Positions 54,091 through 62,632 of a stretch of 64,000 nucleotides of DNA are shown piece after piece. The translations under genes were made by a program, and so were the position numbers. The first letter of the stretch is position 1. The number at the start of each line of letters is the position of its first letter. The notes under the pieces are model-generated. The model made no database searches, was not told where the DNA came from, and worked only from the letters and a program-made list of their open reading frames with translations. The stretch is taken from positions 14,236-78,235 of the forward strand of contig JAZRXG010000042.1 in assembly GCA_045600105.1 (NCBI GenBank). The letters run 5' to 3'. The DNA is from Eubacteriales bacterium (GTDB taxonomy: Bacteria > Bacillota > Clostridia > Oscillospirales > CAG-382).

Positions 54091-54186
54091 AAAAAACGAC
54101 AAGGTATTTATTCAGTCTATTATATCACAACGTTTTCAAAAAATAAAGATATATTGCAGAAAAATTGTAAATTCGGCGTATAAGAA

Positions 54187-54222
54187 AAAAGCTCATCCAA
54201 AGCAGGTTTTGGATGAGCTTTT
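54187..54222. terminator. Intrinsic terminator after the ECF sigma gene
   Basis: AAAAGCTCATCCAAA/TTTGGATGAGCTTTT 15-bp perfect stem. Confidence 0.8.
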
Positions 54223-54237
54223 CAATAATTTCAAACC

Positions 54238-56754
54238 TTATTCGTCTTCTTCGCAGTTCTTTCTGTCGCGGCTGCCGAGGGCGTCCTTGAACATGACCGT
54301 TCCGTTTTCGTCCTCGTCGAATGTGAATTCGGCGTGTGCGTGCCATCCGCCTCCGAGATTTTGCGGTTCATAGCGGCGGAAGAAACCGTCGTCCGTCGGG
54401 AAATAACCGTCCCCTTTTCCGCGGTATTCCGTAAGGACCCACTCGGCTTTGCTGCCGTCCCACAGCGGATGCGTGAAACGAACGATGCCGACACCGGGAG
54501 CGAACCAGTATTCGCATTTCCCCGCGCAGTAGTCCCAGCCGCCGACAAATTCAAAGCTTATATGGCGGCAGTCTTCAAAGACTCCGGCAGGCGTCGTCAC
54601 GCTTTCGCCGCCCGTGACGGTGAAATTCTTCGTGACGTCATCCCATCTGCCTTTCTTTTCGGCAAATGTATAGCCGTCGACCCATTCATCAGACCACAGG
54701 CAGCCCGCCGCGTCCTGCAGAAGCGTCATAAAGAACGAATAGATTACCTTATATCCGTCAACGCCCTTTATCGGTGTATCTTTCCATTCAAAGTCGTAAA
54801 CACGGTTGCACCACATTATTGTTTTTTCCGTTTTTTTCTCGATCACGTCGCGTTCGAAGAAATCCCATTTCCCGAGCACGTCCGTATCGGGGTTGAAAGC
54901 GGCATCGGTCGAGAAAATGCGGCGCATTACGGCATTTGCGATGGTCGTCTGCGTCTTCTGACGCTTGGTGCAGGCGAGCTCTTCGCAGCGCTTCATCACA
55001 TCGCTTACGTCACGCAGTTTTTCATCGTCGCCGTTCACCTCATAATACGTATCACGCATTTCGACGGATTTTCCTTCCCACGTGTCAACGTATCCGTTGA
55101 CAATGTCGTAAAAGCTGTTGTAAAGAGTCACGCATCCGTTTTCGCACCCCGTAACTTCAAAGAAGTTTTCTCTGTCCGAAATACGAATATCATTACCCTT
55201 ATGAGAGTACGACCAACTGTTCCCTGCCTCAAACGGCAGAAGTCCCTTGCCTCCGCGGATACGGTAATCGGAAAGCACCCATTCCGACGTTACACCGGCT
55301 ATCGTCACGGTTTGATAAACGATACCCGCTCCCGGGCAAAGAACCGTTTTGCAGTACGTCAGTCCGTACCTTTCGCCTTCACAGACAAAAACAGAGCAGT
55401 TTTCAAAATGTCCCGCCGGAGTATCGCAGACGGCGTTGTCCTCTTCATAGCGCAGCGCTGTTTTGCAGTCCGATGACGTTCTGACGTCGCCGACCTTCAT
55501 ATCATCATCGAGTATAATACTGTCGCACGCCGACATATTCCAGAAAACACAGCCGCTGCCTCCACAGAAACCGGGCTGATCGGCAAAGTACAGAGCGTTT
55601 CCGATACGTTTATAGCGTTCTCCCGTTGCAGTTATATAATCGTGTTCCTTTTCTCCGCCGTTTTCGATCAGATGGCTCGACACTTTTATTGCCGCGAGAG
55701 CATTGGCGTGATACACTTCCGTTCCGGGGACGATGTGCGTGACATTTTCAAACCATTCTATCGCTTCCGCGTACTCCTGCTTTTTGTAATACTCATAGCC
55801 GAGCCAGAACATAACGTAAGCAAGCGTTTTGGGGTATTTGTTCTCTCGGTAATACGGTATCTGGGTGTTTTTCATGAATTCGATTTTTTCGTCGCCGCGG
55901 TACTTTTCGTACTCCCGGCAGGCGACCGACTGCATAACGTCGTCGTTATGCCCTTCTTCGGCTGATTTCTTTATCCTTTCAAAGGTCTCGTCGTTCTTTT
56001 CGCTTTCCAGCCACCACCAGCCCATCAGCAGAGTGTCGGCAAGGAGCGAACTCTTTTCCTTTGAATCGTCGAGAGTTTCGACGCTTTGAAGCACGGAGCG
56101 GTATTCATCCTCAAATCCGGTCTTGTCGTTTTTGAATCTCCATCTTTTAAGCTCTTCGACCTGACGCATAACGCGTGAAACGAGCGATTCTTTTTCGTTG
56201 TATGTTTTTTCCACTATTCCATAACCCTTTCTTAATTGTTTTCTCCCCTCAGAAAGACGCCATTTGACAGTCCCTTTGGAAACGCCGAGAAGACGCGATA
56301 TCTCAGACACGGACTTGTCCTCGAAATAATGCAGTTTCACCGTTTCGCGCAGTTTCTCGCTCAGCGCCTCGACGCTCTCGTGAAGATCGGTATAGTCTTC
56401 GGCTGCAATTTCCGCTTTCCCGTCATCCTCCGAAAATTCTCCGAGCTTCTCGATAGAGATCGAAGGAATGGCGCTGCGATACCGTGTCATCAACGTTCTC
56501 GCGCTATTCTTTGCGATAGAGCTGACCCACGGACCGAATTTTGAGCCGTCACGAAGAGACGCCAGATTCATCCACGCGGACACGAAAGCGTCCTGCGACG
56601 CGTCCTCCGCCAAAAACGTATTCCCCGTTTCTCTGACGGATACGCCCATCACCGCGCGCTGATGACGGACAACAAGCTCCTCGTAGGCGGAATCGTCCCC
56701 GAGAAGTGTCAGTTCCACAAGTGTCTTATCGGTTTTGTCGACGTGGTTTTTCAT
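54238..56754 (-). CDS. ECF sigma-70 factor with ~660-aa C-terminal extension (TPR plus duplicated TPAGxF beta-type domain)
   Basis: Sigma2 (AYEELV.RH, AEDASQDAF..AW, FGPWV..IAKN) and sigma4 (LHYFED.SV.EIS..LGVSKGTVKWRL..GR) in aa 1-180. TPR-like WLGYEYYKKQEYAEAIEWFE. No TM segment seen. Confidence 0.85.
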   Translation of the reverse strand: MKNHVDKTDKTLVELTLLGDDSAYEELVVRHQRAVMGVSVRETGNTFLAEDASQDAFVSAWMNLASLRDGSKFGPWVSSIAKNSARTLMTRYRSAIPSISIEKLGEFSEDDGKAEIAAEDYTDLHESVEALSEKLRETVKLHYFEDKSVSEISRLLGVSKGTVKWRLSEGRKQLRKGYGIVEKTYNEKESLVSRVMRQVEELKRWRFKNDKTGFEDEYRSVLQSVETLDDSKEKSSLLADTLLMGWWWLESEKNDETFERIKKSAEEGHNDDVMQSVACREYEKYRGDEKIEFMKNTQIPYYRENKYPKTLAYVMFWLGYEYYKKQEYAEAIEWFENVTHIVPGTEVYHANALAAIKVSSHLIENGGEKEHDYITATGERYKRIGNALYFADQPGFCGGSGCVFWNMSACDSIILDDDMKVGDVRTSSDCKTALRYEEDNAVCDTPAGHFENCSVFVCEGERYGLTYCKTVLCPGAGIVYQTVTIAGVTSEWVLSDYRIRGGKGLLPFEAGNSWSYSHKGNDIRISDRENFFEVTGCENGCVTLYNSFYDIVNGYVDTWEGKSVEMRDTYYEVNGDDEKLRDVSDVMKRCEELACTKRQKTQTTIANAVMRRIFSTDAAFNPDTDVLGKWDFFERDVIEKKTEKTIMWCNRVYDFEWKDTPIKGVDGYKVIYSFFMTLLQDAAGCLWSDEWVDGYTFAEKKGRWDDVTKNFTVTGGESVTTPAGVFEDCRHISFEFVGGWDYCAGKCEYWFAPGVGIVRFTHPLWDGSKAEWVLTEYRGKGDGYFPTDDGFFRRYEPQNLGGGWHAHAEFTFDEDENGTVMFKDALGSRDRKNCEEDE

Positions 56755-56792
56755 TTTCGTCTTCCTTTCATTTTTTGGGGGTTCACTATTAA

Positions 56793-56818
56793 GACGCTGA
56801 AATAGTGTAAAAGGTTGG
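56793..56818 (-). promoter_or_regulatory. Candidate ECF-type (autoregulatory) promoter
   Basis: Minus strand reads CCAAC-17 nt-CGTC about 40 nt upstream of the sigma start. Confidence 0.5.
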
Positions 56819-56828
56819 GTGGGAAAAG

Positions 56829-56856
56829 AAAAAACACGGAAAAAACCGTGTTTTTT
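56829..56856. terminator. Intrinsic terminator after nifU
   Basis: AAAAAACACGG/CCGTGTTTTTT stem. Confidence 0.75.
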
Positions 56857-57311: not shown

Positions 57312-58481
57312 TTACTTGTTTTCGTTGATGATTCGTTCCCAGACAGGGGACATATCGCGGAGTTTTTTTACAACGTCGGGGATGACTCCGAGGACGTAGT
57401 CGACTTCTTCCTCGGTGGTGTATTCCGAAAGAGAAAGGCGGAGCGAGCCGTGAGCGATCTCGTGCGGGAGTCCGAGCGCGAGAAGCACGTGGCTGGGGTC
57501 GAGCGAGCCCGACGTGCAGGCGGAGCCGGAAGACGCCGCGATGCCCGCAAGGTCAAGGGAAAGCAGAAGAGATTCGCCCTCGATGCCCTCGAAGCAGGCG
57601 TTCACATTGCCGGCAAGACGTTTGTCTCTGTCGCCGTTGATGCGCGTTCTTTCGATCTTGCTGATGCCGTCGATGAGCTTGTCGCGCAGCTTTGCGAGTT
57701 TTGCGTTGTTCTCGTCAAGGTTCTCGAGCGATTTTTTAAGCGCGAGTGCCATGCCGTAATAGGAAACGAAGTTTTCGGTGCCTGCGCGTTTGCCTTTTTC
57801 CTGACCGCCGCCGTTGATGAGGTTGGGAAGGACGATGCCTTTTCTGATATAAAGCGCGCCGACGCCCTTGGGACCGTGGAATTTGTGCCCCGAAAGAGAA
57901 AGCATATCTATTCCGAGCTCGCGCACGTTGATGGCGATATGCCCGACAGCCTGGACGGCGTCGGTGTGGAAATAGACCTTGTGCTTTTTGCATATCTCGG
58001 CGATCTCCTTCACGGGCTGTATCGTGCCTATCTCGTTGTTCGCGAACATAACGGAAACGAGCGCGGTATCCTCGCGGATGGCGTTTTCGATATCCTCGGG
58101 GTGAACGCGGCCTTCCTTGTCAACGGGAACGTAGGTGGCGTCGATGCCATTGTTGGCGAGCGTATGAAGAATGGCGTGATGCTCGATGTTGGTGGTGATG
58201 ACGTGCTTTTTGCCTTTTCTGCCGAGAAGGCCGAGAGTGCCGAGGATAGCCCAGTTGTCGGCTTCGCTGCCGCCCGACGTGAAGTAGATCTCCTTTGCTT
58301 CGCAGCCGAGAGAATCAGCCATGATCTTTCTCGCGTCGTCAAGCACGTACGATGCCTGAACTCCCTCTTCGTGGAGCGACGACGGATTGCCGTAAGTCTC
58401 TTTCATAAGAGACGCCATTTTATCGATAACTTCGGGATATATCGCCGTCGTTGCGGCGTTATCCATATAAATTCTCTGCAT
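57312..58481 (-). CDS. nifS: Cysteine desulfurase (NifS/IscS)
   Basis: IYMDNAATT, GNPSS, FTSGGSEA, HTDAVQ, SGHKFHGPKG, SSGSACTSG. Start at MQRI on the GAAAGGA RBS. Confidence 0.95.
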   Translation of the reverse strand: MQRIYMDNAATTAIYPEVIDKMASLMKETYGNPSSLHEEGVQASYVLDDARKIMADSLGCEAKEIYFTSGGSEADNWAILGTLGLLGRKGKKHVITTNIEHHAILHTLANNGIDATYVPVDKEGRVHPEDIENAIREDTALVSVMFANNEIGTIQPVKEIAEICKKHKVYFHTDAVQAVGHIAINVRELGIDMLSLSGHKFHGPKGVGALYIRKGIVLPNLINGGGQEKGKRAGTENFVSYYGMALALKKSLENLDENNAKLAKLRDKLIDGISKIERTRINGDRDKRLAGNVNACFEGIEGESLLLSLDLAGIAASSGSACTSGSLDPSHVLLALGLPHEIAHGSLRLSLSEYTTEEEVDYVLGVIPDVVKKLRDMSPVWERIINENK

Positions 58482-58502
58482 TTTTCGTTTTTGTCCTTTC
58501 GT

Positions 58503-58524
58503 CAATTAAACGTCTGTTTAATTG
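58503..58524. promoter_or_regulatory. Inverted repeat, candidate operator at the nifS promoter
   Basis: CAATTAAAC-gtct-GTTTAATTG perfect 9-4-9 inverted repeat just downstream of the nifS -10. Confidence 0.55.
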
Positions 58525-58637: not shown

Positions 58638-58997
58638 ATGAACGAAAACGCCATAAAACTTCCGGATGACGCGACGGCTGCCCTCATTGCCGAAACGTTC
58701 AAGCTCATAAGCGATCCGACACGGCTCAAAGTATTATATCTGCTCTGCCACAGCGAGCAGTGCGTCAACAGCATAGCGTCGGTCATGGATATGTCGCCGC
58801 CCGCGGTCGCGCATCACCTCAAGCTGCTCAAATCGTCGGGGCTTCTTTCGTCGCGCCGTGACGGCAAGGAAGTATATTACACACTCGCGGACACGAAGTA
58901 CGCCAACACCGTACACGAAACGGTCGACACCGTCTTCGGCTGCAAATGCACCGTCTGCGCCTCGGCGCGCAAAGGCGTCAAATGCTCCTGCGACTGA
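58638..58997 (+). CDS. ArsR/SmtB-family transcriptional regulator with Cys-rich C-terminal tail
   Basis: FKLISDPTRLKVL, SPPAVAHHLKLL, RRDGKEVYYTL winged HTH, tail CKCTVC...CSC. Confidence 0.9.
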   Translation: MNENAIKLPDDATAALIAETFKLISDPTRLKVLYLLCHSEQCVNSIASVMDMSPPAVAHHLKLLKSSGLLSSRRDGKEVYYTLADTKYANTVHETVDTVFGCKCTVCASARKGVKCSCD

Positions 58998-59100: not shown

Positions 59101-60654
59101 TTATTTATTATCCATGAAGAACTGCATTACCGATTCAAGGTCCTTCTGATAGGTGGGCTCGAATTTTTCGTACGCGGAGGTGAAATTCTCGTGGACGCCG
59201 TTGACGACGTCGGTCAGGGTGCTGTTGAGAGAGCGGCTGCCCGAAAGCTCGCCGATGCGGAAGATGCCCGCGAGGTCGCAGCCGACGGTGGAAAAGATGA
59301 GGTCAAGCATGATCTCGGAATCTTCTCTGACGAGCTTCTGGTTCTTCATCATCTTCTGATAATAGTTGGTGCAGACCGAGTCGCTGAGCTCGCTCCACGA
59401 ATAATAGCCGATGACGTCCATTATCGCGGCGGCAAATTCAGCCTCTTCCTCGTCGAGGTTGAGCGCGATGCAGTAGGCGTTGGAGCTCCAGGTGCTGAGG
59501 AGAGCGTAGTAGTCCTCCTGTTCCTCGTTATACTTGGGAAGCGGAAGGATGCCGAACTGATCTTCCATATCGAACGAAACGGCTCTGACGAGGCTGTCGG
59601 AGAAGAACATACATCTTCCCTCTTCAAACGCGTCCTGAAGCAGGTCCATCGGAGTCGAGGTGACGTTGAAATAGTCGTTGCCGCGGCAGTACCATTCGCC
59701 CTGCATAAGCTCCTTGGCTTTTTCGATGGTGTTGACCGTCGTTTCGTTGTTGACGGAAAGAACCGCTTCGCTGCCGTCGGTGGTGAACGGTCTGACGCCG
59801 GTGCCGTAAAGGAGATAATACGCGTCGCTGTCCTGACCGCCCCAGCCGAATTCGTCCTTGTAGTCCATTCCTTCGGGCTCGGCGGAGTCGACGGCAAGTG
59901 CCTTTGAGTATTCAAGCGCTTTGTCGATAGTCCATTTGCCTTCGTTTGCGAGGTTTATGGGGTCTTCGAGCCCGAGATTATTTATGAGGTCGGCGTTATA
60001 GAAAATGACGTGGACATTGCCCATGCTGTTTATCGCCATATCGCCGATGGTGAAATAAAGCTGTCCCATTATGGTGAGCGAATCGTTGAAATACTGTTCC
60101 CACCACGGGTTTGCCGTATTGATGGTATCGATGCCGAGCAGGTTATAGAGGCTGCCTTCGGTAGCGAGCGTCGCGCAGTCGTAAAGGCAGACCGAATAGA
60201 GCGAGTAATCGTCAAGAGCGCCCGAAATGTGGTTCCTTATCTGGTCGAGGGTGTCCTTGCCGTAACGCTGAGCGGACTTGTAATATACTTCCTTGATCTC
60301 TACGCCGAGAGTCTCGTATATCTTGTCGTTTCTGGCTTTTATCGCCTCGTTGACGGTGGTCGAGATCTGTTCCTCGCTCAGGTTTTCGTTATAGACGAAT
60401 TCCGAAACGGGGGCGGCGCCGACGCCGGTGGTGAACACGGTGAAGGTCTTTCCTTCGTAGTCCCTGCCGCTGTATATGTCGGGCACGAACGGAGCCTCGG
60501 ACGGTTCCTCGGAAGCTGCTTCCGAAACGTCGGGCGCGCTGTTTTCCGTCTGTTTGCTTTCCGCCGACGGCGTATTCTCCTCCTGCTCGCCGCAGGCGGT
60601 GACCGAAACGACGACGAGCATTATGCAAATGATGAGTGCAAGTGCTTTTTTCAT
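59101..60654 (-). CDS. Extracellular solute-binding lipoprotein, SBP3 (distant paralog of SBP1/2)
   Basis: Lipobox VTAC, NPWW, LYFTIGD, FYNADL, EGKWTID, FGILPLPKY, MLDLIF. Confidence 0.85.
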   Translation of the reverse strand: MKKALALIICIMLVVVSVTACGEQEENTPSAESKQTENSAPDVSEAASEEPSEAPFVPDIYSGRDYEGKTFTVFTTGVGAAPVSEFVYNENLSEEQISTTVNEAIKARNDKIYETLGVEIKEVYYKSAQRYGKDTLDQIRNHISGALDDYSLYSVCLYDCATLATEGSLYNLLGIDTINTANPWWEQYFNDSLTIMGQLYFTIGDMAINSMGNVHVIFYNADLINNLGLEDPINLANEGKWTIDKALEYSKALAVDSAEPEGMDYKDEFGWGGQDSDAYYLLYGTGVRPFTTDGSEAVLSVNNETTVNTIEKAKELMQGEWYCRGNDYFNVTSTPMDLLQDAFEEGRCMFFSDSLVRAVSFDMEDQFGILPLPKYNEEQEDYYALLSTWSSNAYCIALNLDEEEAEFAAAIMDVIGYYSWSELSDSVCTNYYQKMMKNQKLVREDSEIMLDLIFSTVGCDLAGIFRIGELSGSRSLNSTLTDVVNGVHENFTSAYEKFEPTYQKDLESVMQFFMDNK

Positions 60655-60687: not shown

Positions 60688-60716
60688 ATTATAATATACG
60701 TTTTCGGTTTTGTCAA
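60688..60716 (-). promoter_or_regulatory. Consensus SigA promoter for SBP3
   Basis: TTGACA-17 nt-TATAAT. The -35 box overlaps the stop codon of the upstream ABC gene. Confidence 0.75.
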
Positions 60717-62632
60717 TCACCGAGATTTTCGAGATATCTCGACGCCTGAGTGGTGAAGAGTTCGTAATATCTTCCCTTCTGCGCCATCAGCTCGGAATGG
60801 TTGCCGAGCTCGATCATCTGCCCGTATTCGAGCACGATTATCTTTGACGCGACGGTCGCGCTCGAAAGGCGGTGCGACACGAAAATGGTCGTTTTGTCCT
60901 TGCGGAGCTTGTCGAACTGACCGTATATCTCCTGCTCGGCGATGGCGTCGAGCGACGCCGTGGGCTCGTCGAGAATGAGGATGTCGGAATCGGAATAGAA
61001 GGCGCGTGCCACGGCGAGCTTCTGCCATTGACCGACCGAAAGCTCGGTGCCGTTCGTTTCGAAGATACGCATGAGCGGCGTTTCGTAGCCGTCGGAAAGC
61101 TTGTCGATAAATTCGTCGGCTCCCGCCTGCTCGGCGGCGGCGCGGATGTTTTCGGAGGTCGCCTTCTTGCCGAGTTCACCGAACGAGATGTTCTCGGTGA
61201 CGTTGACCGCGTATTTGCCGAAATCCTGGAAGATTATGCCGAAAATGGAGTAAAGCTCGTTCACGTCGTAGTCACGCAGGTCGTTGCCATCGAGCAGTAT
61301 CCTGCCCTCGGTCGGGTCGTAAAGACGGGTCAGCAGCTTGATGAGCGTGGTCTTGCCCGCGCCGTTGAGACCGACGAGCACCACCGATTCGCCTGCTTTG
61401 ATGGTGACGCTTATGTCCTTGATGACGTATTTTTCGGTGCCGGGGTATCTGAACGAAACGTGGTCGAACACTATCTCGTGGCCGACGTGGCGTTCGGGCT
61501 TGAGCGGCGACGCGAGGCGCGAAACGACGGTCTGCTTTTCGTTCATGTAATCGATCATATTATCGATGAAGAGCGTGCCTTCGTATATCGTGGCGGTGAT
61601 GGAGATGAGCGACGAAACGCAGCCCGCGATGGAGTTGAGCGCGCCCGTATAGAGCGAATAATCGCCGATCTCGTTCTGCCCGAGCCAGACACCGCGGGCA
61701 ATGTAGAGGAACAGAGCGCAGTGTACCACCGACGTACAGGCGGTGATGGCGATGTTCCATACGCCCTCGTTGACGTAGAGCTTGCGGAGCCCGGAAAAGT
61801 ATTTTTTGAACGTCTCGTTATATCTGCCGATAAACGTGTCGGCAAGACCGAAAAGGCGTACCTCCTTGACCATGTCCTTGTTGACGAGGACGTCGGAATA
61901 ATACGTGAGCTGTCTGCGGTCCTTGGAGCGCCGTCTGACGTAGTTGAAATTCTTTCTGCGATAAATGAACGTGAGTATGGCAGACGGGAACGCGAGCGCG
62001 ATGACCACCCACGGAGCGAACGGGCTGCACGACCAGAGTATGATGATGAACGAAACGAGCGAGATCATCGAGCTTATGAGGCTGAACGACGCGTTCATGA
62101 TGTTTATCGGACGGCGGCCCGCCTCGTTGGACGCGTTTTCGAGCTTTTCGTAAAACTCGGGGTTGTCGAAGCCCGCAAGGTCGATCTCCTTCGATTTCTC
62201 CATTATCTTGAGCTTGATGTGGTTGACGACAAGCTCGCCGTAAATGCGCGATACTATGTTGTTGATGCTGTTCACAAGCGATTTGAAGAATATGTAGGCA
62301 AACTGGAACACGATCCAGAATATGACCGCGTCAACAAGCTCCTGCATCGCGGGGTCTTCGACGAGCGCCTTGGCGCCGGTGTACGCGGCGGCAAGCGAAT
62401 TGAGCAGATTCGCCGAGATATACGCTCCGGCGACGGGAACGACGCCGTTGAACAGCGCCATGAACATCATAACGAAGAGTATCCACGGGCGGGTCTCCCA
62501 CACGAGTTTGAATATGTAAAACAGACGGTAAAAGAAGCCGCCGACAAGCTTTTTCAGGTCCTTCAGTTTTTCACCGAACGTCTTTTTGGCTTTTTCGGGC
62601 ATCTTTCCGTCGGGCGGACGTTTTGACGTCAT
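60713..62632 (-). CDS. ABC exporter, fused permease/ATP-binding (multidrug/peptide type)
   Basis: N-terminal TM domain, GLNGAGKTT, IFQDF, LSVGQWQKLAVAR, ILDEPT, VSHRLS. Confidence 0.92.
   Translation of the reverse strand: MTSKRPPDGKMPEKAKKTFGEKLKDLKKLVGGFFYRLFYIFKLVWETRPWILFVMMFMALFNGVVPVAGAYISANLLNSLAAAYTGAKALVEDPAMQELVDAVIFWIVFQFAYIFFKSLVNSINNIVSRIYGELVVNHIKLKIMEKSKEIDLAGFDNPEFYEKLENASNEAGRRPINIMNASFSLISSMISLVSFIIILWSCSPFAPWVVIALAFPSAILTFIYRRKNFNYVRRRSKDRRQLTYYSDVLVNKDMVKEVRLFGLADTFIGRYNETFKKYFSGLRKLYVNEGVWNIAITACTSVVHCALFLYIARGVWLGQNEIGDYSLYTGALNSIAGCVSSLISITATIYEGTLFIDNMIDYMNEKQTVVSRLASPLKPERHVGHEIVFDHVSFRYPGTEKYVIKDISVTIKAGESVVLVGLNGAGKTTLIKLLTRLYDPTEGRILLDGNDLRDYDVNELYSIFGIIFQDFGKYAVNVTENISFGELGKKATSENIRAAAEQAGADEFIDKLSDGYETPLMRIFETNGTELSVGQWQKLAVARAFYSDSDILILDEPTASLDAIAEQEIYGQFDKLRKDKTTIFVSHRLSSATVASKIIVLEYGQMIELGNHSELMAQKGRYYELFTTQASRYLENLGD

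Follow-up and report, generated by a model that had tools for sequence, protein, structure and literature searches.

A putative one-component ECF sigma factor with a 660-residue, internally duplicated extension and a conserved promoter in front of its own gene

Introduction

Fused regulatory tails are the least understood mode of control among the extracytoplasmic function (ECF) sigma factors. To our knowledge, only three types of extension have been studied experimentally: SnoaL, tetratricopeptide repeat (TPR), and short Cys-rich extensions. The gene described here encodes an 838-aa ECF sigma factor with a 660-residue soluble extension. It lies at 54238..56754 on the (-) strand of a 64,000-nucleotide stretch of DNA from a Eubacteriales bacterium (assembly GCA_045600105.1, contig JAZRXG010000042.1, positions 14,236 to 78,235), referred to below as the window. 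In 19 ECF groups, a C-terminal extension takes the place of an anti-sigma factor (PMC7826278), and those extensions that have been studied act as regulatory or ligand-binding domains (PMC8103513, PMC8999054).

The group most similar in layout is ECF42, in which the core is directly followed by a TPR-type helical extension and no anti-sigma factor is involved, as is the case here. Activity of ECF42 factors requires the extension, with protein interaction or conformational change as its proposed mode of action, and the group has been studied in Streptomyces venezuelae, Xanthomonas campestris, and Pseudomonas putida (ECF-10) (PMC8999054, PMC8103513). The two differ in that the ECF42 extension is approximately 200 residues long and contains TPR only, whereas the window protein has 660 residues and two DUF3108-like beta domains. 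Work on ECF42 has dealt with members from Actinobacteria and Proteobacteria, while the present family is from gut and rumen Clostridia, and its closest core matches are of the SigW, SigM, SigY, AlgU, and RpoE types. Because the TPR-type region comes immediately after sigma4, ECF42 appears to be the closest functional analogue, and it is by architecture that the two are set apart.

Groups ECF41, ECF56, ECF294, and ECF295 (for example, M. tuberculosis SigJ) are also one-component, with a fused fold of the small-molecule-binding type that modulates the core in cis (PMC3426412, PMC7826278). Their SnoaL/NTF2 domain is absent here: Pfam gave no match to either family at E <= 1, and the top 50 Foldseek matches include no NTF2-like structure. 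The tail also exceeds theirs several times in length and has more than one domain. ECF238 (CorE/CorE2), ECF287, and ECF288 likewise have no anti-sigma factor and carry Cys in the C-terminal part, but their extensions are short (~20 aa in ECF238) and have conserved Cys patterns (PMC7826278), compared with 660 aa and two conserved Cys in the window protein. ECF288 is a Firmicutes group with a CGxxGxGxCxC motif and a DUF2461 gene at +1; here the motif is absent, and the downstream gene is uvrB, behind a terminator.

Judged by architecture, the protein falls outside ECF41, ECF42, ECF238, and ECF288. A preliminary description of this DNA, made from the sequence alone, had already placed it outside the first three. 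ECF262 is listed with a C-terminal extension and a Ruminococcus albus representative (PMC8999054 Table 2). The family, or part of it, may already be catalogued as ECF262, which was compared by name and one accession only; no R. albus record occurs among the best 80 of 173 relatives. A literature search found no functional study of such a sigma-tail protein.

The reading preferred here, with a probability of roughly 0.6, is that of a cytoplasmic one-component ECF sigma factor whose core reads its own promoter and whose tail serves as a sensor or regulator in cis.

The sigma core

The open reading frame (ORF) is intact and begins with ATG. Sigma2 and sigma4 lie within aa 1-180 and are followed by TPR-like helices and two homologous beta domains, so that the order and length given in the preliminary description (838 aa, both sigma regions in the first 180) are confirmed by the ORF and by Pfam.

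Sigma-70 region 2 (aa 27-91) is located at 56482..56676 (-) and matches Pfam PF04542 (Sigma70_r2) with 39.1 bits against a cutoff of 24. It also matches region 2 of E. coli sigmaE (4lup) in Foldseek, with a template modelling (TM) score of 0.91 normalised to the target and a root mean square deviation (rmsd) of 1.5. Sigma-70 region 4 (aa 123-176), the helix-turn-helix that reads the -35 element, is located at 56227..56388 (-). It matches PF08281 (Sigma70_r4_2, aa 123-174) with 46.8 bits against a cutoff of 25.7 and contains the conserved motif VKWRLSEGRKQLRK.

The NCBIfam model TIGR02937 (sigma70-ECF) is matched with 84.8 bits against a cutoff of 42.9. Sigma2 and sigma4 are present, and no region 3 or region 1 match was found in Pfam, which is the composition of an ECF (group 4) sigma factor. 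The named ECF subfamilies in NCBIfam all score below cutoff, the nearest being SigE-fam, SigY, SigM, SigW, and AlgU. The best relatives of the core in the PDB are AlgU, SigW, and RpoE. A search with the sigma core alone returned only members of the same fused-sigma family. By these sequence matches, the N-terminal 180 residues are a genuine ECF core.

The conserved upstream promoter

Of 75 homolog loci, 71 have a conserved ECF-type promoter, ACCCAACCTTTT-N14-GTCTTAT, ahead of the gene. The proteins at these loci are 39-90% identical, and the flanking sequences are unrelated. The ungapped motif, tACCCAACCTTTT-N14-cGTCTTATAaGTGAA, is found within 60-80 nucleotides upstream of the start codon. 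In the window, the -35 element CCCAACCTTTT is located at 56809..56819 (-), with fixed spacing across those 71 loci. The -10 element is GTCTTAA (family consensus GTCTTAT) and lies at 56789..56795 (-). Relative to the anchor CCAACC, the -10 block starts at 24 nucleotides in 61 loci, at 25 in nine, and at 21 in one. The geometry is ECF-like, with an AAC-containing -35, a GTC-containing -10, and fixed spacing. The E. coli RpoE consensus resembles this promoter.

A further block, TAGTGAACCCCCAAAAAA, lies just downstream of the -10 at 56771..56788 (-) and is conserved across loci without gaps. Its family form, aaGTGAAagCCCCAAAA, is present at the equivalent position in loci L001-L085 and shows a degree of conservation close to that of the promoter hexamers. 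Conservation this strong after the -10 is unusual for an ECF promoter. The block has no Rfam match. It is probably the start site or leader, and it could be an operator.

The bacterium's own genome, a 2.1 Mb metagenome-assembled genome (MAG) that is 95.7% complete, was scanned with a two-block position weight matrix (PWM) and with several regular expressions. With the PWM, the window site reaches 37.9 bits, compared with 10.6 bits for the second-ranked site in the genome. Neither approach found a copy of the promoter in this genome beyond the one belonging to the sigma gene. Two weak sites were uninformative: one upstream of galE (contig C8), which has its own sigma-70 promoter, and one on contig C22 that falls within the coding sequence of an ABC ATPase.

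In 15 related genomes that carry the family, the motif is present once per sigma paralog. The exceptions are two chance matches in coding regions, one orphan copy, and one genome without an exact match. Counting the bacterium's own genome, the motif precedes sigma genes or paralogs in 15 of the 16 genomes scanned. An order-wide scan by regular expression was barely informative, since a reversed-pattern control gave approximately 13 genomes against 14. The orphan copy, CACCCAACCTTTTTTATATCTTTTCTGTCTATG, is of the long-paralog type (locus L118, G327:C84:706-734 (-)). Downstream of it lies a terminator-like hairpin instead of a sigma gene, and the copy looks like the remnant of a deleted paralog.

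The promoter varies with the size of the protein. Paralogs of 1050-1130 aa (L100, L111, L115, L117) have the same -35 element and a -10 of TCTA. The 845-aa class (L086-L090, L107-L110) has a -10 of TCTTA, and genomes with both classes keep both variants. This difference could separate paralogs within one cell.

Since the promoter travels with the gene, is ECF-shaped, and is absent elsewhere in the genome, it would be best explained by self-recognition, that is, by positive autoregulation. Because the motif is restricted to the gene itself, no wider regulon can be proposed.

The same observations bear on a different account, in which the upstream motif is read by another sigma factor or is a repressor operator, there is no autoregulation, and the tail is possibly an evolutionary relic without a regulatory role. 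The case for self-recognition is one of co-occurrence, and the conserved block reaches past the normal -10 (GTGAAC-CCCC-AAAA), which is compatible with an operator. However, further targets of another sigma factor should carry the motif, yet the motif is unique in the genome, and its geometry is typical of ECF promoters. Mean column identity in the tail is 48-64% across the family, which points to strong purifying selection and argues against a relic. This account is regarded as very unlikely.

Domains and fold of the extension

The first part of the extension is an all-helical, TPR-like region (aa 190-365) at 55660..56187 (-). A full-length AlphaFold2 (AF2) model, made with 77 homologs, has a mean predicted local distance difference test (pLDDT) of 87 and contains nine helices in this region with a pLDDT of 89-98. 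Pfam matches to TPR_2, TPR_1, and TPR_8 at aa 312-341 are sub-threshold. Foldseek matched the region to the TPR proteins MamA, PilF, LGN, and RapF with a probability of 0.9-0.99 and low TM-scores. The helical or TPR region that the preliminary description placed after the core is therefore present in the model, with TPR matches that remain below the Pfam threshold.

The beta domain D1 (aa 366-557), delimited by its alignment to D2 with hhalign and by AF2, is located at 55084..55659 (-) and contains the invariant residue C453. It is joined to D2 by a linker (aa 558-616) at 54907..55083 (-), which AF2 predicts as three helices (559-569, 584-593, and 597-615) and which holds the conserved motif TKRQK...RI. 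The beta domain D2 (aa 617-838) is located at 54241..54906 (-), was delimited by Pfam and profile matches, and contains the invariant residue C729.

D1 and D2 are copies of each other. At the sequence level, aa 445-515 (55210-55422) and aa 721-790 (54385-54594) are 39% identical with an E-value of 2e-8. Profiles built from 16 homologs each align with an hhalign probability of 98.3% and an E-value of 1.6e-14 over 111 columns. The internal duplication proposed from the sequence alone, and its position, hold up under both comparisons.

Both domains appear from sequence to be DUF3108-like (PF21347). With the single sequence, the Pfam DUF3108_like match at aa 708-759 is sub-threshold (E 6e-5, 23.4 bits against a cutoff of 27), but the longer paralogs score 33.3-33.8 bits, above the same cutoff. 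The D2 profile matches two PDB entries of DUF3108-like proteins (PF21347/PF11306), 4fvs (BDI_3050, a putative lipoprotein; 6.6e-7) and 3fzx (a putative exported protein; 1.8e-6), and shares with them the conserved TPAGxFxxC...GxGxV strands. Unlike the tail described here, which is predicted to be cytoplasmic and is duplicated and fused to a sigma factor, these two proteins are single-domain, approximately 215 aa long, and annotated as exported or as lipoproteins. No transmembrane helix was predicted in the window protein, in agreement with the preliminary description; the highest 19-residue Kyte-Doolittle mean is 1.37.

A Foldseek search with the whole protein was swamped by sigma matches, and the tail was modelled and searched separately. 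The model of aa 366-838 has a pLDDT of 92.8 and a predicted TM-score (pTM) of 0.84. The best neighbours of the two-domain module belong to the SRPBCC/helix-grip type. They are the di-domain polyketide aromatase/cyclases (ARO/CYC) StfQ and BexL, which also consist of two tandem domain copies, the PYR/PYL abscisic acid receptors, and Bet v 1. The comparison suggested by the preliminary description, Foldseek of the repeat domain, thus returned ligand binders with a probability of 0.9-0.96, but with TM-scores of only 0.16-0.35 and 8-17% identity, which make no case for a shared function. No sequence-level signal for the SRPBCC/START helix-grip superfamily was found in the beta domains. The likeness to cavity-forming ligand binders is best taken as a weak analogy, a resemblance of fold type rather than homology.

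Cysteines of the extension

The protein contains exactly 20 Cys, as the preliminary description had estimated by count. All are located in aa 279-834, and none in the sigma core. They make up 2.4% of the protein and 3.0% of the tail. The tail value ranks near the 95th percentile among the genome's long ORFs, and the content is high without being extreme. The preliminary description had called the duplicated part a Cys-rich domain and considered a redox, metal, or iron-sulphur (Fe-S) function. In the corresponding explanation, the tail Cys would act by coordinating a metal or cluster, or through disulfides that turn the sigma factor on, with a link to the adjoining iscS-iscU genes.

Consistent with this explanation are the confinement of the Cys to the tail, the presence of one invariant Cys per repeat, the neighbouring iscSU genes, and the precedent of Cys-based metal switching in CorE-type ECF238 (PMC7826278). 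Its difficulty is conservation. In sets of 30 and of 77 homologs, C453 and C729 are the sole invariant Cys, each being the FENC Cys of the TPAGxFENC strand of its repeat. The remaining 18 are 3-73% conserved, and homologs carry 9-22 Cys. The two invariant residues are approximately 276 residues apart and lie in separate domains. Their placement in the FENC strand motif suggests a structural or pocket residue rather than a shared site. CxxC, ZAS-type HxxxCxxC, and ECF288-type CGxxGxGxCxC motifs are all absent from the protein, and the iscSU neighbourhood is present at no other locus examined. A redox or metal-sensing sigma factor is therefore considered highly improbable, and the Cys-rich label does not fit.

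Outside the repeats, position 78 in sigma2 (56521-56523, (-) strand) is Cys in 29 of 30 homologs and Ser in the window protein. The sole well-conserved Cys outside the repeats is therefore absent from this ortholog. Position 84 is Cys in half of the 30 homologs.

Distribution and size classes of the family

A word-indexed search found at least 368 homologs. The best 120 of these are nearly all 838-870 aa long, with 100% query cover down to 48% identity. Full-length homologs span 39-92% identity. In species-representative genomes, 173 relatives were found. Among the best 80 of these, nearly every one bears the label Clostridia, Oscillospiraceae, Acutalibacteraceae, or Ruminococcus, and nearly every one comes from a MAG of a human, mouse, horse, or ruminant gut. 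Two carriers (L016 and L026) are MAGs labelled Sphaerochaetaceae and Selenomonadales, while the remaining listed carriers are Clostridia; these labels probably reflect mis-binning or mislabelling, not transfer. Within the bacterium's own family, 17 of 61 genomes have the gene, and some genomes contain two or three paralogs.

The tail was also searched on its own, using a hidden Markov model (HMM) of aa 366-838 against a library of representatives at 50% identity. It matched 194 proteins at E <= 1e-30. In most of the full-length proteins listed (approximately 830-900 or 1045-1130 aa), the match starts at about aa 365-400, and shorter matches look like fragments cut by contig ends. From these match positions, the tail module occurs almost only fused to this sigma core.

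The family can be sorted into three size classes. The class of approximately 575 aa has D1 as its only beta domain (P0327, 42% identity, ends exactly after D1). The class of approximately 845 aa contains the TPR-like region, D1, and D2, as in the window protein. The class of approximately 1050-1130 aa has the same N-terminal architecture with added C-terminal sequence and is probably a three-domain form. Separate from these classes, three metagenomic proteins of 575 aa (P0392, P0393, and P0394) represent another, odd kind of sigma fusion: an ECF core, 28% identical to that of the window protein, is joined to the complete set of three beta-clamp domains of DNA polymerase III (PF00712, PF02767, and PF02768).

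The spread of the family also settles whether the long ORF could be an artefact of a missed stop, a frameshift, or a chimeric assembly. Its size is unusual for an ECF sigma factor, and its tail domain type is otherwise found in exported lipoproteins. However, hundreds of independent assemblies from many studies contain the same uninterrupted architecture over the identity range given above, and homologs in related genomes have no internal stops. The preliminary description had asked whether the fusion is missing from homologs; it is kept in hundreds of full-length ones. The probability of an artefact is negligible.

Locus and flanking genes

The sigma gene is located between iscS-iscU on one side and uvrB-uvrA on the other. 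The intrinsic terminator of the upstream iscS-iscU unit is found at 56829..56856 (-) and has a ∆G of -13.0 kcal/mol, a z-score of -5.1, and a following U-run. The intrinsic terminator of the sigma gene is found at 54186..54223 (-) and consists of a 16-bp stem with a ∆G of -21.9 kcal/mol, a z-score of -7.6, and a following U-run. Both hairpins were missed by a simple terminator scanner and were found through ∆G and z-score. The sigma gene has its own Shine-Dalgarno sequence, GAAAGGAAG, sited 6 nucleotides upstream of the start codon, and uvrB, beyond the downstream terminator, has its own sigma-70-like promoter. With terminators on both sides, its own Shine-Dalgarno sequence, and a separate uvrB promoter, the sigma gene is monocistronic and isolated from iscS-iscU, as first described. 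An internal translation start at the conserved residue M196 is unsupported, a Shine-Dalgarno-like sequence 5-17 nucleotides upstream being present in 0 of 49 homologs. An Rfam scan of the locus gave a sole match, a spurious miRNA on the terminator hairpin.

No candidate anti-sigma gene was found at the window locus or at the three diverged homolog loci examined (L001, L003, and L005). Together with the Pfam and TIGR02937 matches and the flanking terminators, this agrees with the preliminary description, in which the ECF sigma factor stands alone, has no adjacent anti-sigma factor, and carries a very long soluble extension. The iscS-iscU/uvrB-uvrA setting is shared by none of these three loci. 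The first lies near phage/recombinase genes and a pst-phoU two-component cluster, the second near MatE and glnA, and the third near HTH regulators and a restriction-modification system. Because the neighbourhoods all differ, the position between Fe-S biogenesis and excision repair genes is coincidental, and the meaning attached to it earlier is not sustained.

The GC content of the sigma gene is 51.1%, compared with 54-56% in its neighbours. It is thus more AT-rich than its neighbours, as stated earlier, but it is not an outlier in the genome (mean 52.1 +/- 2.7%, 32nd percentile), and a horizontal-transfer signal from GC content is ruled out on this basis.

Two other features of the surrounding region are worth recording. 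A gene for an ArsR/HTH_5-family regulator, at 58638-58997 (+), is transcribed away from iscS, which occupies 57312-58505 (-). A 517-aa ORF at 59101-60654 (-), which matches no Pfam family at E <= 1e-5, separates this ArsR gene from one for an ABC exporter (60713-62632).

Proposed mechanism

We infer self-recognition of the promoter, control of activity by the tail, and the involvement of a ligand. The sigma2-sigma4 core would bind RNA polymerase and would most likely read the conserved promoter directly upstream of its own gene, giving positive autoregulation. The 660-residue tail would stand in for an anti-sigma factor and act in cis, either by holding the core inactive or by being required for its activity. 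Binding of a small hydrophobic ligand, or of a partner protein, in the cytoplasm would determine its state, and the beta domains are the probable signal-binding part.

Several points weigh against this mechanism. The genome scans found no target promoter other than that of the sigma gene, and a purely self-directed sigma factor would be odd. In the full-length AF2 model, sigma2 is confident, but the sigma2-sigma4 linker and sigma4 are poorly defined (pLDDT <60), and no contact between tail and core is demonstrable. The TM-scores and identities of the ligand-binder matches are low and the rmsd is high, and the ligand idea therefore rests on analogy. An inhibiting tail (ECF41-like) and an activating tail (ECF42-like) are not distinguishable from sequence. 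All sequencing runs with the locus are DNA metagenomes, with no RNA runs among them.

The restriction of the promoter to the sigma genes can also be explained if the tail is itself the effector, for example by sequestering or carrying a hydrophobic compound. The sigma core would then only amplify its own synthesis, and the regulon would be the gene itself. This agrees with the 15 of 16 genomes in which the motif precedes sigma genes or paralogs, the other matches being chance coding-region sites and the one orphan. It also agrees with the confidently predicted fold of the tail, with the size of the tail, which exceeds that of the core more than threefold, and with the varying number of beta domains among members, as expected of a capacity-type function. 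Against it, weaker targets can escape pattern searches, the own promoters of ECF sigma factors being usually the best-conserved sites of their regulons, and the MAGs are incomplete, as is the one from this bacterium. We know of no sigma factor that works as a self-amplifier only. An effector tail is considered unlikely.

A more elaborate version of that account is decidedly unlikely. In it, the sigma factor would be a built-in, ligand-triggered positive-feedback amplifier of an undescribed ECF group, with its own gene as the only target. The tail would supply between one and, probably, three DUF3108-like pockets in the cytoplasm, taken over from a family otherwise annotated as exported, and would be the actual effector for, or binder of, a hydrophobic metabolite derived from the gut. 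The two forms of the -10 element would keep paralogs separate. The preferred reading remains that of a sigma factor regulated in cis by its tail.

Significance

The finding says nothing specific on Fe-S biogenesis or DNA repair, and it demonstrates no categorically new principle. That no target besides the sigma gene itself is detectable remains a puzzle. To the extension types known so far, the family adds a much larger tail, composed of a TPR-like region and a variable number of DUF3108-like domains. With one gene and one well-defined orthogonal promoter, it would form a compact sensor-to-promoter unit that is experimentally tractable and may offer a first functional handle on the DUF3108-like domain. 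Its members are found widely among uncultured Clostridia of the gut and rumen and form at least 194 clusters at 50% identity.

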